From the IMG/VR virus record IMGVR_UViG_3300037063_000214: a stretch of DNA of 64,000 nucleotides. One strand, written 5' to 3'. Made by a program: the position numbers and the translations under genes. Origin of the DNA: a virus. This document shows positions 3,723 through 62,153 of the stretch, one piece after another (positions within the stretch are counted from its first letter, which is position 1; each line of letters starts with the position of its first letter). Under the pieces are notes generated by a model that worked only from the letters and a program-made list of their open reading frames with translations, made no database searches and was not told where the DNA came from.

Positions 3723-6700
3723 ATGGCTATTCCAGTTCCATTTGATCCGAATAACGCAGTTACCGTTACAGGTACAGGTGCAACAGTAGAAACGCAGAAT
3801 TCTACACTCCCGAATCAACTACCTATCTCCAATACATCACCCACAGGAGTTACGGGTACAGTTCCATCCCAAACTCCGGCTACTACTATTAGAAATTTGT
3901 CCCAAAGTTGTCAAGAAAGAGAAATAATCAAGACCGCTCCCGATGTTATTGTGTATTTAGAGGGAACCCCCTATTTGACAAATTACTTTATCGACGATCC
4001 AAAAACCAAAGCTAGTAGTACTTTAGTGAATTTTAATGACCATGTCACAGCATTCAACGCTTCTTATGATACAGATATAATGGTACCCAACGCCACTATC
4101 GGTTTGCAGGTTCCAAATTTTTTAAGGTACTTGTATAAAATGCCAGGGGGTAACAATCTTTTAGACACTATGATGCAGGTACAAGTATATGCTAAAGGAT
4201 ATTACTTAGCATCAAACGGAGATACAGTATATCGCCGGGTTTTCAAGGGAATCACATCTCACATAAGTTATAACGACAATGGAAAAACTCTGGAGATATC
4301 AATTCAATGTCAAGGGTCAATGCACTTACTTGAAAAGATGCAAATTAATGTTCACCCATCTGCAATGGCAGCGGTAACTTTAGGGAGTATGTTAACCTGG
4401 CAGCAAAGTATTTTTGGAGATAATAATTGTTTTACTATCTTAGCAAAAGCTTTCACAACAGGTTTTCAATCGGATGGATTTCAAGCTAGTTCAGTTAGGA
4501 GCACAGATGGAGGTTATTTAACTCCAAGTGATATGTTTTATTCCGCTGTTACTAGAGGTTACATGGCGAAATGGCAAGCCATTTTGATGAATATGATTAA
4601 AGATGTACATATTTATGGGCCAGACAAAGATACTTTAGGGCAATTAGATCAATTACAAGAAGATGAAAATAAAGGGAAGATGGACAAAGATAAGAAGTAT
4701 GCTAGTGTTACATCTCATCCCGTAAAAACTTTTACTGAAACGATTACTGATAACTCCCCTTATTATAAAAAAATACAACAATTTTTACCTTTTAGAACTC
4801 CCGCTAGTTTACAGCTTACTGAGAGTGTTATTGTTAATAGATTGGATATTATTCGTGAAGTAGTTAAGAAGATGGATTTTGAAGCATATCAAGATATTGA
4901 TGGTAAGATTATTATCAAACCACCTTTGTACAATCTGGATGTCACAAACTTAGGTACTCGGTCTAAACAAACTAGTTCCAGCCCTCAAAATTTTGACAGT
5001 TTAGTTCAATCATCTATATCTACTGCACTTAGTGGAGGCTCGACGCCAACAACAACTACCTCTAGTAATTCAGTGTCTGCTAGTAGCATTAATCCACCAT
5101 CTACTAGCAATAGTATGACGAATCCTCTGACTCAAATTTACCCGCAAAATAATCCTTTTGTGGTTTATTTATCAGAAATGTTAACAGAACAGGAAACAGA
5201 AGATCAAAGCGCCATTCGACGCACGCGCACCACTATAACAGGAAATATTATGCCGTGGCAGGGGAACAATTTTCCGGCACCCGCAAAGCCAGTAGCGGAG
5301 TATATTGATGTCACAAAACTAGCAAAGTTTGGTCTTAGGGAAGAACCCATGCAGCAAGTACCCTGGCTTACAATGGGAGACAAATATACTCTATTCGCTC
5401 ACGCTGCCGCAGAAACAGCTAGGACAAATAGAGGGTACCGTACTTACTCGTTTACTATTCCCATGCGCCCTGAATTGAAATTGGGATTCCCCGTATTTAT
5501 ACCCCACAAAGATATGTACGCATACATAAAATCTGTAGCTATAAATTATCAGGTTGGGGGGTCAGCTACAATGTCCATAGTATGTGATACAGTCCGACCT
5601 AGAGTTTTGGTTAAGACAGCTCAAACATCTACTACGGGCAATGTTAGTAATTCACCGGCCACAAAATTTTCCGCTTATACCACAGCCCCTAATTTAATTT
5701 ATATGTGGACAAATAATCCAGTCGCAGCTACGGTGTTTGATCCCGCGCAACCCCAAAGTTACAATCAATATATTCAACAAACCGCTGGGGGTAATCAAAA
5801 TACAAACACTAATATGACAAGTGAGCTAAATGTATCTCAATCTTTACCCGCTGTTACGAAAAACATTGACGGAACAAAATTTGGTCCAACAGATCAACAA
5901 ATAAAAGTGTATTCTTATCTATCCACTACCTTAGCAACAACCGTAGGTAATAAAGCCAGTACTCCTACATCTACTTATGTTATCGTAAATGATACGGGGT
6001 ATTTTAATGGAAGAGCAAAAGACCCAAATTATCCAGGCCGACCAGCGGATGGAGATTATGTAAAGGATATTTGTGGTAATCCAAATTCTGTTATTCCTTA
6101 CACAGATGATAAAGGATATGAATTAATATCCCCATTTCCATGGGGGAGATGGAAAGATCTCAACACAACCATCAGTGAAATAACCGAACAGGGGTGGATT
6201 AATATTCCTCAGACTAACGGGTTAAATGGGCAAGATTTACAAGATGAGACAACTTTTCAAAGTACGGAGGCTTTTTTGTTTGCTGGTTTAGGTACTCCAA
6301 CGGCTACAAGTGACCCATCGACTATGTTATCCACGGCCATGGCTACCCAACAAAGTACAAATACTACACCTACATCGGTTTCACCAGCTTCAGCATCAGC
6401 TCCAAATTCACCGAATACCGGGGGAAATTCGACAAATACCATACAACCAGATGTTACTGTAATAGTATTAGATTACAGTCAACCAGGTTCTAATAGTAAT
6501 TTGTTAAATGCAGCTCAACCAGAAAACGCCTTGGCCGCTAGTTTAGTTAGCGCTAAAAACGCTGGATTGGCCGAACAGCAGCTAGTTAGCGTATTAGTAT
6601 CTGGGACTGTAGCTCCAATCCCAGCGGTGCAAGAACAATTATTAATTGCTCAAAACAGTGCGGCTAATGCACAGCAGTCATTTGCTACACTGACCTTACC

Positions 6701-56998: not shown

Positions 56999-57355
56999 AT
57001 GCTTGAAAAAGTTAAGTATGATGCTACACCTCAACCTTTACCAGTGGGAGGAACTATAGATGTAGCAATTGAAGTTGCAAAAGACCTAAAAGCGATGGGG
57101 CTAGAAAACATTGCAGAATGTGTTGAAGCTCGTATTCGCTTAGGTGAAAAAAAGTATGGAACTCGTTTAAAAGCGCATAATGGTAGAGACGCAATGACCG
57201 ATTTATTTGAGGAGCTTCTCGATGCTTTGAACTATTCAAAACAAATTCAACTTGAAAGTACTAATGGCGACACTTATTTTTACCCAGAACTTCTTAAATT
57301 AGTCATTAAGGTTAAAGCCAGTCTTGACCTAAAACATTCAACTAAAGTAGAATAA
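56999..57355 (+). CDS. Putative all-alpha NTP pyrophosphohydrolase (MazG-like)
   Basis: ENIAECVEARIRLGEKKYG ... DAMTDLFEELLDALNY resemble the ExxE...E/DxxD metal-binding helices of MazG/HisE-type enzymes. Weak. Confidence 0.3.
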   Translation: MLEKVKYDATPQPLPVGGTIDVAIEVAKDLKAMGLENIAECVEARIRLGEKKYGTRLKAHNGRDAMTDLFEELLDALNYSKQIQLESTNGDTYFYPELLKLVIKVKASLDLKHSTKVE

Positions 57356-57369
57356 AACCAGGAGGAAAT

Positions 57370-59541
57370 ATGAATCGTATTGTATCCGCACTTATCGTTT
57401 TTGTATTATTTGTAACCCCAGTTTTTGCTAGAAACCATCCATTGAAACGTCATGTCCGCAAAGAAGTTACATCGGCTGCTCGTGTAAGTGACCTTCCAGC
57501 AGATCGTCAATTGATTATGGCTATTATGTTGCCTCTCCGCAATGAGTCAACTTTAACAGCTCTTTTACAGCAAATAAACACCCCATCAAGTCCTTTGTAT
57601 CACCAGTTTCTAACGCCTGAACAATTCACTAAAGAGTTTGGTCCAACGGAACAGGATTATCAAGCGGTAGTTCGTTTTGCTATAAAGCAGGGGTTTTTTG
57701 TGTACAAACAACACACTAATCGTATACTTGTTGATATCACTGGATCTACAGCACAAATAGAAAAAGCTTTCAATGTAAAAATGGGGTTATATAAACATCC
57801 TATTGAAAATCGTAATTTTTATTCTCCAGATGTAGAACCGTCTCTTGATTTAGATGTTCCAATCTATCGTATTGCTGGTTTAAATAATTTCTCTATTCCT
57901 AGTCGTAGATTGATTAAGCGTTCATTTAACGCTCGTCTATCAGATGTAGTTGCAGGGTCTGGTCCTAGCGGTTCTTTCCGTCCATCGGATATGCGAGCGG
58001 CATATTATGGATCAGGTACTTTGACAGGTACCGGTCAATCTGTGGGCATGTTAGAGTTCGATGGTTATAATATCGCAGATGTAAATTCTGATATGGGGGG
58101 TGTTGCTTATACCGTACCTGTACAGAATATTCTTGTCGATGGTGCAAGTGCTGGCTCTGATGGAGATGATGGAGAGCAAGCTTTGGATATCGCTCAAGCT
58201 ATCGGTATGGCACCGGGGTTAACTTCTGTACGGGTTTACATCGCCCCAGGCAATTCCGCCATAGGTACCGGAGATGTGGATATTTTTAATCAAATGGCTG
58301 TGGACAACATTTCCAAACAATTGAGTTGTTCTTGGGGTTGGAGTCCCGATGATATAACTGATGATGACCCTATTTTTAAAGAATTCGCAGCACAGGGTCA
58401 AAATCTTTTTGTAGCCTCTGGAGATGCTGGTAAGTATACGGGAAATAACAATAATGATAGCAGCTACCCAGCTGAAGATCCGTATGTTGTAGCTGTTGGC
58501 GGTACGGATTTAACTACAAATGGTGCTGGAGGAACTTGGCAAACAGAAACGGCTTGGTCGGATAGCAGTGGTGGTCCAGCGGACGATGGTTTTGCAATTC
58601 CTAGCTGGCAAGTAGGAGTAGCAAATTCTAATGGTGCTTCTACAGCAATTCGTAATGTTCCGGATGTTGCCGCAGAAGCAAATTTCGATAATATTATGTG
58701 TGATGATGGCGCTTGCACTTACAATCAAACTGGGGGTACTAGCTATGCTGCGCCTCGCTGGGCTGGCTATATGGCTTTAGTGAATCAGCAGAACATGACT
58801 AATCATGGTACTACTTTAGGTTTCTTGAATCCCTTGATTTATCCCATTGGTTTCGGTGCTGCGTACACTATTAATTTTCACGATATTACAAGCGGGAGCA
58901 ATGGGCATCCGGCTACTGTTGGGTATGATATGGTAACTGGTTGGGGTAGTCCTAATGGGGCAACTTTAATCAATACTTTAACAGGCGCTCCAACCGGAGT
59001 AGGATTACAAGCAACTTATAATCCAACCTATAAAACTCCAGCATGTACAGTTGTCAGTAATTCCTGTGATTCAGGCCCAACTCTACTTTTAGGTCGCGGA
59101 AATGTGCATAACGGTGCGGAACAAAATCACCCCAATACAATCAATAACTCTTGCGGGGATGGGAACTCGGGGGTATTTCACTCCTATGAATCAAATGATC
59201 GCCTTGCGGTAGCTTCTGTATCTGGTGGGTTGTTAACCGCGGGTACAAAAGCAACGATAACAGCCACAGTATGGGCTCGAAAGGATTTTGAAAGCGATTC
59301 TCTTGACCTTTACGTTACTTCAAATGTTGTAAATCCTACTTGGGTTTATATCGCTACGCTTAAGCCCACTAAAGATGCACAAAATATTTTATCGACTACA
59401 TTTACTCTCCCAGCCTCCGGCAATTTACAAGCTGTACGAGCACATTTTCGATATGAGGGACATGTGAATCCATCGGCTTGTGGTAATTCTTCTGGTGGAG
59501 AGTATGATGATTATGATGATTTAGTTTTTGCGGTGAATTAA
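57370..59541 (+). CDS. Secreted S53-family serine peptidase (sedolisin/kumamolisin-like) with an N-terminal pro-kumamolisin activation domain
   Basis: AGGAGG SD. Signal peptide MNRIVSALIVFVLFVTPVFA. Pro-domain QFLTPEQFTKEFGPTEQDYQAVVRFA. Catalytic Ser motif GGTSYAAPRWAG; Asp/Glu-rich catalytic region. Confidence 0.8.
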   Translation: MNRIVSALIVFVLFVTPVFARNHPLKRHVRKEVTSAARVSDLPADRQLIMAIMLPLRNESTLTALLQQINTPSSPLYHQFLTPEQFTKEFGPTEQDYQAVVRFAIKQGFFVYKQHTNRILVDITGSTAQIEKAFNVKMGLYKHPIENRNFYSPDVEPSLDLDVPIYRIAGLNNFSIPSRRLIKRSFNARLSDVVAGSGPSGSFRPSDMRAAYYGSGTLTGTGQSVGMLEFDGYNIADVNSDMGGVAYTVPVQNILVDGASAGSDGDDGEQALDIAQAIGMAPGLTSVRVYIAPGNSAIGTGDVDIFNQMAVDNISKQLSCSWGWSPDDITDDDPIFKEFAAQGQNLFVASGDAGKYTGNNNNDSSYPAEDPYVVAVGGTDLTTNGAGGTWQTETAWSDSSGGPADDGFAIPSWQVGVANSNGASTAIRNVPDVAAEANFDNIMCDDGACTYNQTGGTSYAAPRWAGYMALVNQQNMTNHGTTLGFLNPLIYPIGFGAAYTINFHDITSGSNGHPATVGYDMVTGWGSPNGATLINTLTGAPTGVGLQATYNPTYKTPACTVVSNSCDSGPTLLLGRGNVHNGAEQNHPNTINNSCGDGNSGVFHSYESNDRLAVASVSGGLLTAGTKATITATVWARKDFESDSLDLYVTSNVVNPTWVYIATLKPTKDAQNILSTTFTLPASGNLQAVRAHFRYEGHVNPSACGNSSGGEYDDYDDLVFAVN

Positions 59542-59548
59542 CCAGAGC

Positions 59549-59624
59549 GCTCTTGTAGCTCAGTGTAGAGCATTCCGTGTGCAACGGAAGGGTCGGATGG
59601 TTCAACTCCATCCCAAGGGCTCCA
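59549..59624 (+). tRNA. tRNA-like element, possibly a degenerate tRNA (anticodon loop tgTGCaa implies UGC/Ala) with an encoded 3' CCA
   Basis: Acceptor gctcttg/caagggc (one U-G) then t, CCA. D-arm gctc-agtgta-gagc (6-nt loop). Anticodon stem ttccg/cggaa. T-arm ggatgg-ttcaact-ccatcc. Non-canonical G at position 33 and a 6-bp T-stem. Confidence 0.5.
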
Positions 59625-59629
59625 AATTT

Positions 59630-60595
59630 ATGAAGGAAATCTATGAACGAGTAGCGGCAGATTTCGCAGAGAAAATTGACCATCTGTTTGAATCTGAAAA
59701 ATCCCTAGAGACCACATTTAAACAGTATTACGAAGGTTTGCCCTTTGATCGTACAGAGCACTGGAGCGGTATCATCCACAAAATTTTATCTGATTCCTGG
59801 AAAGACAAAGGACCTGAAGTAAAGTGTGAACCTACAGGAATGGATAAACTTCAAATTATGCGTTATCTTCATCATCTTCTGGATTACAATATTTTTACTC
59901 AAGTACTTCTCAATCTCCAAGGATACACCGGTATGTTTTATATGACCGGAGATGCCCAAGCTGAGATTGAGCGAATGAAATCAGCATGGTCTTCAGCATA
60001 CAAACTTGACCCCTTTGCTCCAAAGGCTAAAATGCTGAAACAGGCTGAAGCGATTACCGAAGAACAAAAACAATACAATCAAACTATCAGTGCTCTTCGT
60101 GCCCTGCGTATCATCACTCAGTTTACTCCACAAATTAGCTTCAGAGTGAGCCCAAAAGGGTCTACACCGGCCTTCGCAGACAGTCGTAATATCAGTATGA
60201 TAGGGTTGGGGGGAGATCGCTTTCTTAAAACGATATCATCCCTCAAACCGTATTACATTACTTGGAATCAAGTTCCTCAAATAGCCCAATTTATCGGGAT
60301 TACCACACCACCAGGGCACGATGTTCCTGTCTCTACATTTAAAGCAGACGGCATATCATATGAATTCCATTCAAAATCTGGTGGAGAAGTGATTCAAGAT
60401 GTTCTTTTTGCTAGAAAAATCATGTATGAAATCTTCCGAGATGTTAATATAACCAGAGAGACTTGTATCATGATTCCTCGTATGAATTCTATTTTGATTG
60501 TTGGGGATGTAGTATTTGAGAATCTACAAAAGGCATACGAGCGCCTGTACAAGATGTATCCGGTCATTAGTTTTGTGGATGGGATTCGTGCCTAA
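59630..60595 (+). CDS. Hypothetical protein (321 aa)
   Basis: First ATG downstream of the tRNA-like element. Track ORF 59579 would start inside the tRNA. Confidence 0.5.
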   Translation: MKEIYERVAADFAEKIDHLFESEKSLETTFKQYYEGLPFDRTEHWSGIIHKILSDSWKDKGPEVKCEPTGMDKLQIMRYLHHLLDYNIFTQVLLNLQGYTGMFYMTGDAQAEIERMKSAWSSAYKLDPFAPKAKMLKQAEAITEEQKQYNQTISALRALRIITQFTPQISFRVSPKGSTPAFADSRNISMIGLGGDRFLKTISSLKPYYITWNQVPQIAQFIGITTPPGHDVPVSTFKADGISYEFHSKSGGEVIQDVLFARKIMYEIFRDVNITRETCIMIPRMNSILIVGDVVFENLQKAYERLYKMYPVISFVDGIRA

Positions 60596-60770
60596 AAAAT
60601 GTAGTATTCATCTCTGTGAAAATCAAGCAACTAACTCTCTTCTGTTTAGTGATGATTCCATATCATTTTATTGCGCAAAACATTATGATTCCATAACCAA
60701 GCGTTGGCTGAAACAGGCAGCGGAAGACTTAGATTGTTTAAAAGCGGTGAAAAGGAATAAGCTCAGATGA
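60579..60770 (+). CDS. Small Cys/His protein, paralog 1 of the ...FYCAKHYD... family
   Basis: MGFVPKKCSIHLCENQ...SFYCAKHYDSI. The start is uncertain; it overlaps the upstream gene. Confidence 0.45.
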   Translation: MGFVPKKCSIHLCENQATNSLLFSDDSISFYCAKHYDSITKRWLKQAAEDLDCLKAVKRNKLR

Positions 60771-60964
60771 AAAAATGTGATTATACTCGCTGTGAAAATT
60801 CAACTGTCGCACATATCGATTATTATAATAGTAATTTAAAATTTTACTGTGCGAAGCATTATGATTTAATAGTTAAACATTTGGCCAAATATGCCCAAGA
60901 CCCCGATGAATGGGGGATTCAAAGGTGGTTTACAGAAATTCTAAGAAGGAACGGGATCAGATGA
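60767..60964 (+). CDS. Small Cys/His protein, paralog 2 (MKKCDYTRCEN...KFYCAKHYD...RRNGIR)
   Basis: ATGA overlap with paralog 1; strong aa and nt similarity to paralog 3. Confidence 0.55.
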   Translation: MKKCDYTRCENSTVAHIDYYNSNLKFYCAKHYDLIVKHLAKYAQDPDEWGIQRWFTEILRRNGIR

Positions 60965-61173
60965 AAAAATGTGACTATAATCGTTGTGAAAATTCAGCTG
61001 TCGCACATATCGATTACTGCGGGCAAACAGCTCAGCCAATCTGTGGGCCCGCAGTAAAGTTTTACTGTGCGAAGCATTATGATTTTATAGTTAAATATTT
61101 AGCTAAAGATGCCCTAGACCCCGATGATGATGGGTGGTCTACAAAAATTCTAAGAAGGAACGGGGTCAGATGA
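60961..61173 (+). CDS. Small Cys/His protein, paralog 3 (MKKCDYNRCEN...KFYCAKHYD...RRNGVR)
   Basis: ATGA overlap. The same junction sequence aagaaggaacggg(a/g)tcagATGAaaaa recurs. Confidence 0.55.
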   Translation: MKKCDYNRCENSAVAHIDYCGQTAQPICGPAVKFYCAKHYDFIVKYLAKDALDPDDDGWSTKILRRNGVR

Positions 61174-62153
61174 AAAAGATATTTCTGTTGGACACAATGA
61201 GTTTTATCTACCGCGCTTATCATGCTGCGGCACATCAGTCCATTATGATGAGTACTAAAGCAGGATTTCCTACCGGGGCGAGTTATATTTTTTGTAATAT
61301 GCTTCGTAAATTACAAAAAGATTTTAATCCCGAGTACCTCATCGCCATATGCGACACCCCGGGCGAAACCTTTAGAGATAAACTATCCCCTGATTATAAG
61401 GCCAATCGCAAGGGCGAAACTCCTTACGACTTGGTACGCCAACTTCCTCACATTTTTAAGGCGATTGAAGCTTACGGCATCTCTAAAATGGAGTTGGCTG
61501 GATATGAAGCAGATGATATTATTGGTACCTTGGCGCGTAAAATTTACGCCGAAGATCCTGAAAATCAAGTATACATTGTGACCGGTGATAAGGATATGTT
61601 TCAGTTGGTAAACGACAGAACATTTACCATCAATCCTATGAAAGACTTGGTGTGTGATGTAGAAAAAGTGACTGAGATTGTGGGTGTGCCCCCAGAACAA
61701 GTTGTAGATGTCATGGCTTTACGTGGAGACACCACAGACAATGTGCCCGGAGCCCCGGGAATCGGCAAGAAGGGGTCTGTAGACATCATCAAGCAGTTTG
61801 GTTCTTTAGAACAAGCTTTTGTACGAGCGGATGAATTGAAGCGTAAATCATATAAAGAGTCCTTAAAAAATAATCAAGCTCAAATCCTACTCAGCAAACA
61901 ATTAGTGACCATAGAAATCAATGCTCCCGTAGAACTTAGTATTTCGTCTATGAAAATAGGGGAAACTAATACTGAAGCTCTGAGTTCTTTATACAAAGAA
62001 CTAGAGTTCGCCACTCTTTTGAAAAGAGAAGGTTTAGGAGCGCTGCCTGAAATTGTAGATGACTTCGCAGAAATCGTACCTCCTGATGACATTCTCACCC
62101 AAACCACGATGACCAAAGAAGATGCGGATGATTTGATCGACAGTATTTCATAG
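61170..62153 (+). CDS. 5'-3' exonuclease / flap endonuclease (Pol I N-terminal-domain-like, FEN)
   Basis: FLLDTMSFIYRAYHA; GYEADDIIGTLA; IVTGDKDMFQLV; the H3TH region TDNVPGAPGIGKKGSVDII. Confidence 0.8.
   Translation: MKKIFLLDTMSFIYRAYHAAAHQSIMMSTKAGFPTGASYIFCNMLRKLQKDFNPEYLIAICDTPGETFRDKLSPDYKANRKGETPYDLVRQLPHIFKAIEAYGISKMELAGYEADDIIGTLARKIYAEDPENQVYIVTGDKDMFQLVNDRTFTINPMKDLVCDVEKVTEIVGVPPEQVVDVMALRGDTTDNVPGAPGIGKKGSVDIIKQFGSLEQAFVRADELKRKSYKESLKNNQAQILLSKQLVTIEINAPVELSISSMKIGETNTEALSSLYKELEFATLLKREGLGALPEIVDDFAEIVPPDDILTQTTMTKEDADDLIDSIS

Follow-up and report, generated by a model that had tools for sequence, protein, structure and literature searches.

A tRNA-shaped gene with an alanine anticodon, G33 and a threonine-type body in a large phage

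Few bases in biology are as strongly conserved as the uridine at position 33 of transfer RNA (tRNA), and to our knowledge the natural tRNAs known to carry a purine in its place are rare dual-identity tRNAs with regulated mistranslation. The Candida tRNA-Ser(CAG) with G33 and the bacterial tRNA-ProX with A33 are of this kind, the rare purine at position 33 typifying the dual identity and curtailing decoding (PMC11415595). Changes of the anticodon loop are also the means by which phage tRNAs, namely those of mycobacteriophage and T5, escape host anticodon nucleases (PMC10264068, in which no mention of position 33 was found); the tRNA-Lys of T5 is set against the PARIS system (PMC11464382) and phage tRNA-Tyr against retron effectors (PMC11555353). 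Here we describe a gene from a 64,000-nucleotide (64 kb) stretch of the virus record IMGVR_UViG_3300037063_000214 of IMG/VR, the whole of which is hereafter called the window. The element occupies positions 59549-59624 of the plus strand, between a gene for an S53 protease and a conserved phage gene for a 321-amino-acid (aa) protein. It is a genuine tRNA-shaped gene of a large phage. From its sequence it is best described as a combination of a threonine-type body, an alanine anticodon and G33.

The identification as a tRNA gene is supported by predictors and by the fold itself. ARAGORN calls a tRNA-Ala(tgc) which ends exactly at 59549 and 59624, with no second tRNA in the window, and the Rfam model RF00005 matches end to end (model positions 1-71) with 44.7 bits, the gathering score being 29 (local E = 1.8e-8). 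Written arm by arm in DNA letters, the gene reads GCTCTTG TA GCTC AGTGTA GAGC A TTCCG TGTGCAA CGGAA GGGTC GGATGG TTCAACT CCATCC CAAGGGC T CCA. The cloverleaf is its minimum-free-energy fold (-30.3 kcal/mol, 62% of the ensemble, z = -3.2), with only 1 of 200 shuffled sequences equally stable, and all 22 stem pairs are intact. The guanine-plus-cytosine (GC) content of the element is 55%, that of five sibling tRNAs of the same phage 53.8-59.3%, and that of the genome 41%. Among 16 independently assembled metagenome contigs of this phage, the 15 that span the element have identical letters throughout it, so the deviations described below are not sequencing errors. Four strict patterns for exact or near-exact copies, run against viral and metagenome collections, returned nothing, apart from the near-identical contigs, which were reached through proteins.

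The departures from a canonical elongator tRNA affect the anticodon loop, the D-loop and the T-arm. Position 33 is a G, the U33 for the anticodon U-turn being absent; the 689 seven-nucleotide (nt) anticodon loops of our census have T in 631 instances, C in 37, A in 14 and G in 7, and in the first reference set G33 was found in 0 of 193 other tRNAs. The loop UGUGCAA differs from the loop UUUGUAA of tRNA-Thr(UGU) at positions 33 and 36. The D-loop AGUGUA holds a single G, so there is no G18G19 doublet for pairing with the T-loop. A sixth T-stem pair, G59595:C59613, is possible, which would give a 7+6 rather than a 7+5 acceptor/T stack; the Rfam alignment places one insertion in each strand of the T-stem, the ARAGORN drawing leaves 59595 and 59613 as unpaired spacers, and a pair of this kind can be formed in 18 of 722 tRNAs. 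Canonical features kept by the element include the T-loop UUCAACU, U8, A14, A37 and the encoded CCA. An earlier, sequence-only reading had proposed the same cloverleaf, which the minimum-energy fold and both predictors bear out. The features that it listed (a U-G acceptor pair, a 6-nt D-loop, a perfect 5-bp anticodon stem, the T-loop and the CCA) are all present in the sequence, as are the deviations it named (G33, the short D-loop, the sixth T-stem pair, and a UGC anticodon with a reversed U3:G70). Its word "degenerate" overstates the case, because the Rfam score lies within the 40.9-50.2 bits of the five canonical siblings.

The identity of the element was approached through reference sets of 277 tRNAs for an acceptor census and of about 700 tRNAs for body similarity with the anticodon loop masked. 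The anticodon UGC fits the NGC of tRNA-Ala, and the anticodon is not a determinant for alanyl-tRNA synthetase (AlaRS). The bacterial alanine determinants are A73, G2-C71, G3.U70, G4-C69 and G20, and every prokaryotic tRNA-Ala known so far keeps A73 and the first three acceptor pairs (PMC9976931). None of the five is found in the element, which has U73, C2:G71, U3:G70 and C4:G69 and lacks G20, whereas every correctly registered tRNA-Ala of the 277-tRNA set has G3:U70 and A73. As every bacterial AlaRS determinant is missing, the element does not qualify as an alanine tRNA by identity rules and is in all likelihood no ordinary one; the tRNA-Ala label that annotation pipelines will give it is almost certainly wrong. 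In the same set the combination of G1:C72, C2:G71 and U73 occurs in threonine and glycine tRNAs only. Counted against identity rules in the standard register, the element satisfies 4 of 6 elements for glycine (U73, G1:C72, C2:G71 and C36, with U3:G70 for G3:C70 and G35 for C35), 3 of 7 for threonine (G1:C72, C2:G71 and G35, with C for U36, U for the G34 of the E. coli set, C4:G69 for G4:C69 and U5:A68 for G5:C68) and 1 of 6 for cysteine (U73, with G2:C71 and C3:G70 absent and a GCA anticodon only upon a one-base register shift). Body similarity to glycine tRNAs is low (top-3 mean 0.667); the best isotype is threonine, also when the D-arm is masked, and alanine (n = 29) stands near the bottom. 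On the whole, these comparisons support the suggestion, made from the sequence alone, of a phage tRNA with altered identity: the genome is that of a large phage, two predictors agree, no alanine determinant is present, the acceptor end is of threonine or glycine type and the body resembles threonine tRNAs. A first body-similarity classification was dropped in favour of the larger set, as its reference set suffered from collection bias and gave no discrimination; likewise, a parent search through the anticodon stem and variable loop returned 47 loci of many isotypes, none with G33, and was uninformative.

The two nearest of the approximately 700 tRNAs are tRNA-Thr(GGU) genes (L145 and L187) in bacterial thrU-tyrU-glyT-thrT operons, with 82.6% and 80% identity outside the anticodon loop. 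The element shares with this thrT type an identical 17-nt D-arm with the AGUGUA loop, the acceptor GC(U/C)-UUG, U73, the GGAAGGGUC segment and the UUCAACU T-loop. It differs in its anticodon loop, which is UUGGUAA in the bacterial gene and acquires G33 and C36 here, in the extra T-stem pair and U3:G70, and in its isolated site between protein-coding genes of a phage. With the dual-identity tRNAs introduced above it has in common a purine in place of U33 and a discord between anticodon and acceptor identities, and with tRNA-ProA an alanine anticodon (PMC11415595). The resemblance does not extend to the acceptor end, which is threonine- or glycine-like rather than serine- or proline-like: tRNA-ProX has a proline acceptor with G72 and A73, A33, A34, A15:A48 and a dedicated ProRS, whereas the element has C72, U73, G33 and U34, lacks A34, A15:A48 and G21, and has no co-encoded dedicated synthetase within the 64 kb. 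No family of aminoacyl-tRNA synthetases or tRNA-processing enzymes was found among the 49 open reading frames (ORFs) of the window. The nuclease-evading phage tRNAs offer a different parallel in that the element is phage-encoded and its deviations are concentrated in the anticodon loop; those tRNAs have a coherent identity, unlike the element, whose anticodon is mismatched to its body. Ordinary tRNAs of large-phage arrays resemble it in the encoded CCA, in co-transcription with neighbours and in a GC content well above the genome average, and differ from it in that the element is solitary, lies about 6 kb from the array, and has G33, a D-loop without GG, a 7+6 stack and U73.

Genes with comparable peculiarities were recovered from other large phages by searches anchored on the D-arm, in which the parser kept well-paired candidates only and ARAGORN, by its design, sees only cloverleaves. 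When the D-arm and T-loop were required and the anticodon arm was left free, two tRNAs of large-phage arrays were found, L090 (loop UAAAUAA) and L091 (loop CAUUUAG), both with the AGUGUA D-loop, U73 and a purine at position 33, and with acceptor stems that differ from that of the element by compensatory changes. The D-arm alone yielded 13 viral loci and more than 120 metagenome loci, the carriers falling into two groups. One comprises canonical tRNAs, for example threonine and glycine genes with U73; the other comprises intact cloverleaves with a purine or C at position 33, with loops of 6, 8 or 9 nt, or with the anticodon arm replaced by a hairpin that ends in a GNRA tetraloop. Among 660 control tRNAs without the anchored D-arm, strongly aberrant loops accompany 15 of 46 D-loops lacking GG as against 13 of 614 D-loops with GG (odds ratio 22, p = 8e-12). 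The 24 aberrant members, including the element, have 98.6% standard pairs and 161 double-sided changes, and their covariation score of 0.855 compares with 0.18 after shuffling and no more than 0.19 when the register is slid. At least 9 contigs from a different clade of large phages share a syntenic tRNA array in which aberrant genes fill the same slot, between Lys(CUU)/Arg and Lys(UUU). No described class of phage tRNAs with purine-33 or a short D-loop was found in the literature searched; a paper on AcrIIIA1 that was considered proved unrelated, as it concerns fragments of host tRNA and tmRNA. The notion of a "ThrX" group, in which one threonine-type body would carry many foreign anticodons, was rejected, the GCCC...U73 subfamily being nearest to canonical tRNA-Lys.

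The array with the aberrant slot (L090, L094/L099, L095, L110, L123, L141, L153, L157 and L222) has the common order Ile-Tyr-Asn-Gln-Lys(CUU)-(Arg)-[1 to 3 aberrant]-Lys(UUU)-Met-Val-Ala...Asp-Trp-Gln. The genes of the slot are intact cloverleaves with A33, G33, C33 or loops of 6 or 8 nt, many with a conserved UUU core, and look like paralogues of tRNA-Lys(UUU) in which position 33 was varied or deleted. This is a further likeness of the phage-array class to the nuclease-evading tRNAs, as it includes Lys(UUU)-type genes whose position 33 is A, C or deleted. In L100 (about 6150-6235, minus strand) and in L191, a tRNA-like gene with an acceptor stem, the AGUGUA D-arm, a 6-bp T-stem and A73 (followed by CCA in L100 and CTA in L191) has the anticodon arm replaced by a 4-bp hairpin with a GCAA tetraloop and hence no anticodon. 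The recurrence of cloverleaf genes with A33, G33, a 6-nt loop or a tetraloop, in part at a conserved place in arrays, suggests that tRNA-shaped RNAs are kept for something beyond codon supply. Such non-decoding tRNA-shaped RNAs would tie in with recent work that shows tRNAs to be a principal point of conflict between phages and the nucleases of bacterial defence. Confirmation of the class would provide testable candidates for nuclease-resistant or decoy tRNAs, and would caution against counting each predicted phage tRNA as a decoder.

Given the above observations, the reading that we tentatively favour, at somewhat less than even confidence, is that the element is a structurally maintained, decoding-impaired tRNA of a large phage, whose value would lie in tRNA-centred phage-host conflict or in hybrid decoding. 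Its body would derive from a bacterial thrT-type tRNA-Thr with the anticodon loop remodelled to U-G33-UGC-A-A. Its genomic context is consistent with transcription within an operon of the protease and the 321-aa gene, from which the 5' end would be released by RNase P, 3' trimming presumably halting at the encoded CCA. As the acceptor end fits the rules of ThrRS or GlyRS (the threonyl- and glycyl-tRNA synthetases), the amino acid, if the RNA is charged at all, would not be alanine, and the U-turn weakened by G33 would make decoding of GCA and GCG inefficient. The element appears to belong to a recurrent phage class, marked by short D-loops without GG and by anticodon loops that are of odd size or lack U33, in which selection is unlikely to act on ordinary codon supply. 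The role we prefer for it is that of an altered-loop tRNA that anticodon-loop nucleases could not cut, or of a tRNA-shaped decoy; low-level hybrid decoding would be the main alternative within the same explanation. The more general proposition, that phage tRNA-shaped RNAs are kept as non-decoders serving as decoys or uncuttable stand-ins, or that in the present case a dual-identity tRNA places threonine or glycine at GCA and GCG codons, is rather unlikely in our estimation.

A long residence with selection on the tRNA structure is suggested by its 55% GC and flawless stems beside a protease gene that has ameliorated to phage composition, an indirect argument that holds if the two arrived at comparable times. 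Several observations weigh against the favoured interpretation. This gene is confined to one phage lineage, so conservation gives no support for the interpretation, and on the rule counts the acceptor identity is ambiguous between glycine and threonine. Polymorphism does not help either: the 16 contigs differ at 21 sites over 9.4 kb, and the absence of single-nucleotide polymorphisms from the 76 nt of the tRNA (0 against 0.17 expected) is uninformative on constraint because the contigs are about 99.9% identical to one another. The members closest in architecture, the GCCC...U73 subfamily, have bodies of lysine and not threonine type, leaving a shared function unsupported. Finally, pseudogene decay combined with the cloverleaf requirement of ARAGORN could yield the association between D-loop and anticodon loop, and the covariation count was made on candidates preselected by the parser for good pairing.

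Among the rival explanations, a neutral relic is unlikely but has the most to be said for it. According to this, a threonine-type tRNA gene lost its decoding through loop mutations and indels and has since decayed little, release by RNase P still being possible. The element is indeed lineage-specific and solitary, in a hypervariable slot beside a horizontally acquired gene, several defects at critical positions coincide (G33, the loss of G19, the extra T-stem pair, the mismatch of anticodon and acceptor), the polymorphism is uninformative, and odd "tRNA-???" calls are common in phage arrays. A decaying gene, however, sits poorly with 22 of 22 intact stem pairs, with two extra T-arm bases that pair mutually, with an Rfam score on par with those of functional siblings, with 55% GC in a 41% GC genome next to a fully ameliorated captured gene, and with the retention in other phages of similar aberrant-loop genes with covarying stems and a conserved array position. 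A more distant prospect, and one that we regard as improbable, is a tRNA-shaped processing or regulatory signal, at which RNase P and 3' nucleases would split the protease mRNA from the downstream mRNA, the released RNA having no role of its own, and whose acceptor-stem folding would in addition make the weak ribosome-binding site ahead of the 321-aa gene inaccessible. The polycistronic setting is compatible with such a signal: the gaps to the flanking genes are 7 nt and 5 nt, there is no promoter or terminator nearby and no terminator-like site in 5 kb, the only Shine-Dalgarno-like motif of the 321-aa gene lies in the acceptor 3' strand, and the 321-aa gene here lacks the translational coupling to a preceding gene that is seen in relatives. 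An encoded CCA, a canonical T-loop and a full anticodon arm are nevertheless not needed for that purpose, genuine tRNAs are produced from comparable surroundings, as the other tRNAs of this phage show, and none of the present analyses separates such a signal, as the sequence-only reading had envisaged it, from ordinary tRNA maturation.

The readings that take the element for a decoder of conventional identity are less probable still. An ordinary tRNA-Ala(UGC) that supplements the decoding of GCA, GCG and GCU has in its favour the UGC in the standard register and the codon usage, GCA making up 26% and GCT 43% of 1271 alanine codons in 35 genes of the window, in an AT-rich phage of a probably GC-rich host. 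The complete want of alanine determinants, the position of alanine near the bottom in body similarity and the impairment of decoding by G33 nonetheless render it very unlikely. Reading the loop one base further on, as U-G-U-GCA-A, would place the U-turn at U 59580 and give a tRNA-Cys with the anticodon GCA at 59581-59583; U73 would be coherent with this, U73 and a GCA anticodon being major determinants for the cysteinyl-tRNA synthetase (PMC9976931), and U is found at position 34 in 13 of the 21 purine-33 loops of our survey. The shifted 7-nt loop, however, has no alternative pairing register and would leave one base only after the anticodon, G2:C71 and C3:G70 are absent, the body is like that of threonine and not cysteine tRNAs, and L098, which combines G33 with an in-register ACC and a full glycine-type acceptor, argues for the standard register; we therefore consider the shifted reading highly improbable. 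Finally, tRNA genes are common integration targets and the element borders a horizontally acquired gene, which recalls the remnant of a tRNA-targeted integration, an attP or the scar of an att site, as also entertained from the sequence alone. This idea is rejected and is the least probable of all: the tRNA is complete and not a 3' fragment, its 3' half occurs only once in the window when up to 3 mismatches are allowed, none of the 49 window ORFs matched an integrase family, and the acidobacterial loci that carry relatives of the protease have no tRNA within 5 kb.

The position of the element between its neighbours was clarified by comparison with relatives. A mechanically assigned start of the downstream ORF, GTG 59579, lies inside the tRNA and is used by some gene callers to predict a 338-aa product. 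The N-termini of nine orthologues in related phages (M-[QKRL]-E-[IVM]-Y-Q-R) align with ATG 59630, which is for that reason the true start, and the tRNA is therefore intergenic; its overlap with the predicted start of the downstream ORF, as noted in the sequence-only reading, is an artefact of the mechanical GTG. The tRNA gene begins 7 nt after the TAA stop codon of the upstream gene and ends 5 nt before the ATG. As no promoter-like or terminator-like site was found beside the element, it is probably co-transcribed with its neighbours. The Shine-Dalgarno-like motif mentioned above is AAGGG. A 93-aa ORF on the reverse strand (59402-59683, minus strand) runs across the tRNA; as it lies antisense to the tRNA and also to the end of the protease gene and the start of the 321-aa gene, it is most likely spurious. 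The features are collected in Table 1.

Table 1. Coordinates in the window of the tRNA gene, its parts and the two flanking genes
Feature	Coordinates	Strand	Basis
S53 (sedolisin-type) protease gene, upstream of the tRNA	57370..59541	+	Pfam Pro-kuma_activ and Peptidase_S8
Complete 76-nt class I tRNA gene, encoded CCA	59549..59624	+	ARAGORN, Rfam RF00005, minimum-energy cloverleaf, 15 identical contigs
Acceptor stem 5' strand GCUCUUG, pairs with 59614-59620 (CAAGGGC): G1:C72, C2:G71, U3:G70	59549..59555	+	sequence
D-arm GCUC-AGUGUA-GAGC, 6-nt loop without G18G19 doublet	59558..59571	+	sequence
Anticodon arm: stem UUCCG/CGGAA, loop U-G33-UGC-A-A; G33 = 59579, anticodon = 59580-59582	59573..59589	+	sequence
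Variable loop GGGUC	59590..59594	+	sequence, Rfam alignment
T-arm GGAUGG-UUCAACU-CCAUCC: canonical 5 bp and outer G:C pair 59595:59613	59595..59613	+	Rfam alignment
Discriminator U73 (59621), then encoded CCA	59621..59624	+	sequence
Conserved 321-aa phage gene, function unassigned	59630..60595	+	orthologue N-termini, 240 homologues

The tRNA and the protease gene together constitute a lineage-specific insertion. In the 13 relatives inspected (9 IMG/VR loci, and 4 closer contigs that have 65-69% protein identity) no tRNA lies upstream of the orthologue of the 321-aa gene, the protease gene is likewise missing, and in the same slot the upstream gene abuts or overlaps the orthologue. No homologue of the 321-aa gene with an identity between 69% and 100% occurs among the 120 best listed. 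The protease, of the sedolisin or kumamolisin type with a pro-domain, is an unusual cargo for a phage, and the viral collection searched contained no relatives of it. Its best homologues have 69-75% identity and lie on the chromosomes of Acidobacteriota, Terriglobales, Candidatus Sulfotelmatobacter and Bryobacteraceae among them, which indicates by sequence comparison that it was captured from this phylum and points to an acidobacterial host. The GC content at third codon positions (GC3) is 0.278 in the phage gene, as in other genes of the phage, and 0.66-0.73 in the bacterial homologues; the capture must be old, because GC3 has fully ameliorated to the phage composition. The phage protease has 723 aa versus about 940 aa in the bacterial proteins, and its C-terminal quarter differs.

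The genes of the window, almost all of which are on one strand, encode baseplate and tail proteins, lysozymes, a helicase, a UvsX-like recombinase and exonucleases. Contigs with the same genes reach 176 kb, those of related phages 223-455 kb, and a blastn search with positions 57000-62000 gave no match in the collection of sequenced phages. About 6 kb downstream of the element, just past the end of the window, the phage encodes a tRNA-Tyr(GUA) and four tRNA-Leu genes, which are the siblings referred to above; all five are canonical, with U33, a GG in the D-loop, a 5-bp T-stem and A73-CCA. This array lies at about 65.6-66.6 kb in window coordinates (L020 12794-13693; also in L001-L009, L026, L028 and L032), and both in this phage and in all its relatives it follows the conserved 321-aa gene at a distance of a few kb and consists only of type II tRNAs with a long variable arm, namely 1-3 copies of Tyr(GUA) and Leu genes with the anticodons GAG, UAG, CAG and CAA. 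Such a restricted set suggests a response to a host nuclease specific for type II tRNAs rather than codon supply. Two of the closest relatives have, inside their Tyr/Leu arrays, "tRNA-???" calls with 6-nt anticodon loops (L008 9054-9122 and L026 7442-7510), whose D-loop GAAUGGCAGA is common to them and the adjoining Leu genes. Directly upstream of the tRNA-Tyr lies a 74-aa gene with a match to Pfam PF21825 (Sequestin; L020 12340-12564, about 65.1 kb in window coordinates). One population variant (L014 8857-10002, about 62.5 kb) contains a gene for an IS605-type OrfB/TnpB (Cas12f-like) protein that is not in the window, and the contigs vary by indels around 62.4-63 kb.

Further unusual tRNA-related genes were observed in the course of the survey. 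Amber-suppressor-type tRNAs with a CUA anticodon, called "tRNA-Pyl" by ARAGORN, occur in large-phage arrays (L090 1953-2028, L183 2163-2235 and L211), which hints at TAG recoding in those phages. Several Bacteroidota genomes (L041, L042, L050, L058, L068, L069, L071 and L078) contain tandem arrays of truncated tRNA-like units with a period of about 74 nt. Each unit runs from the 5' acceptor strand through D-arm, anticodon arm and variable loop to an A-rich spacer and lacks both the T-arm and the 3' acceptor strand, and the 7-nt loop varies from unit to unit.

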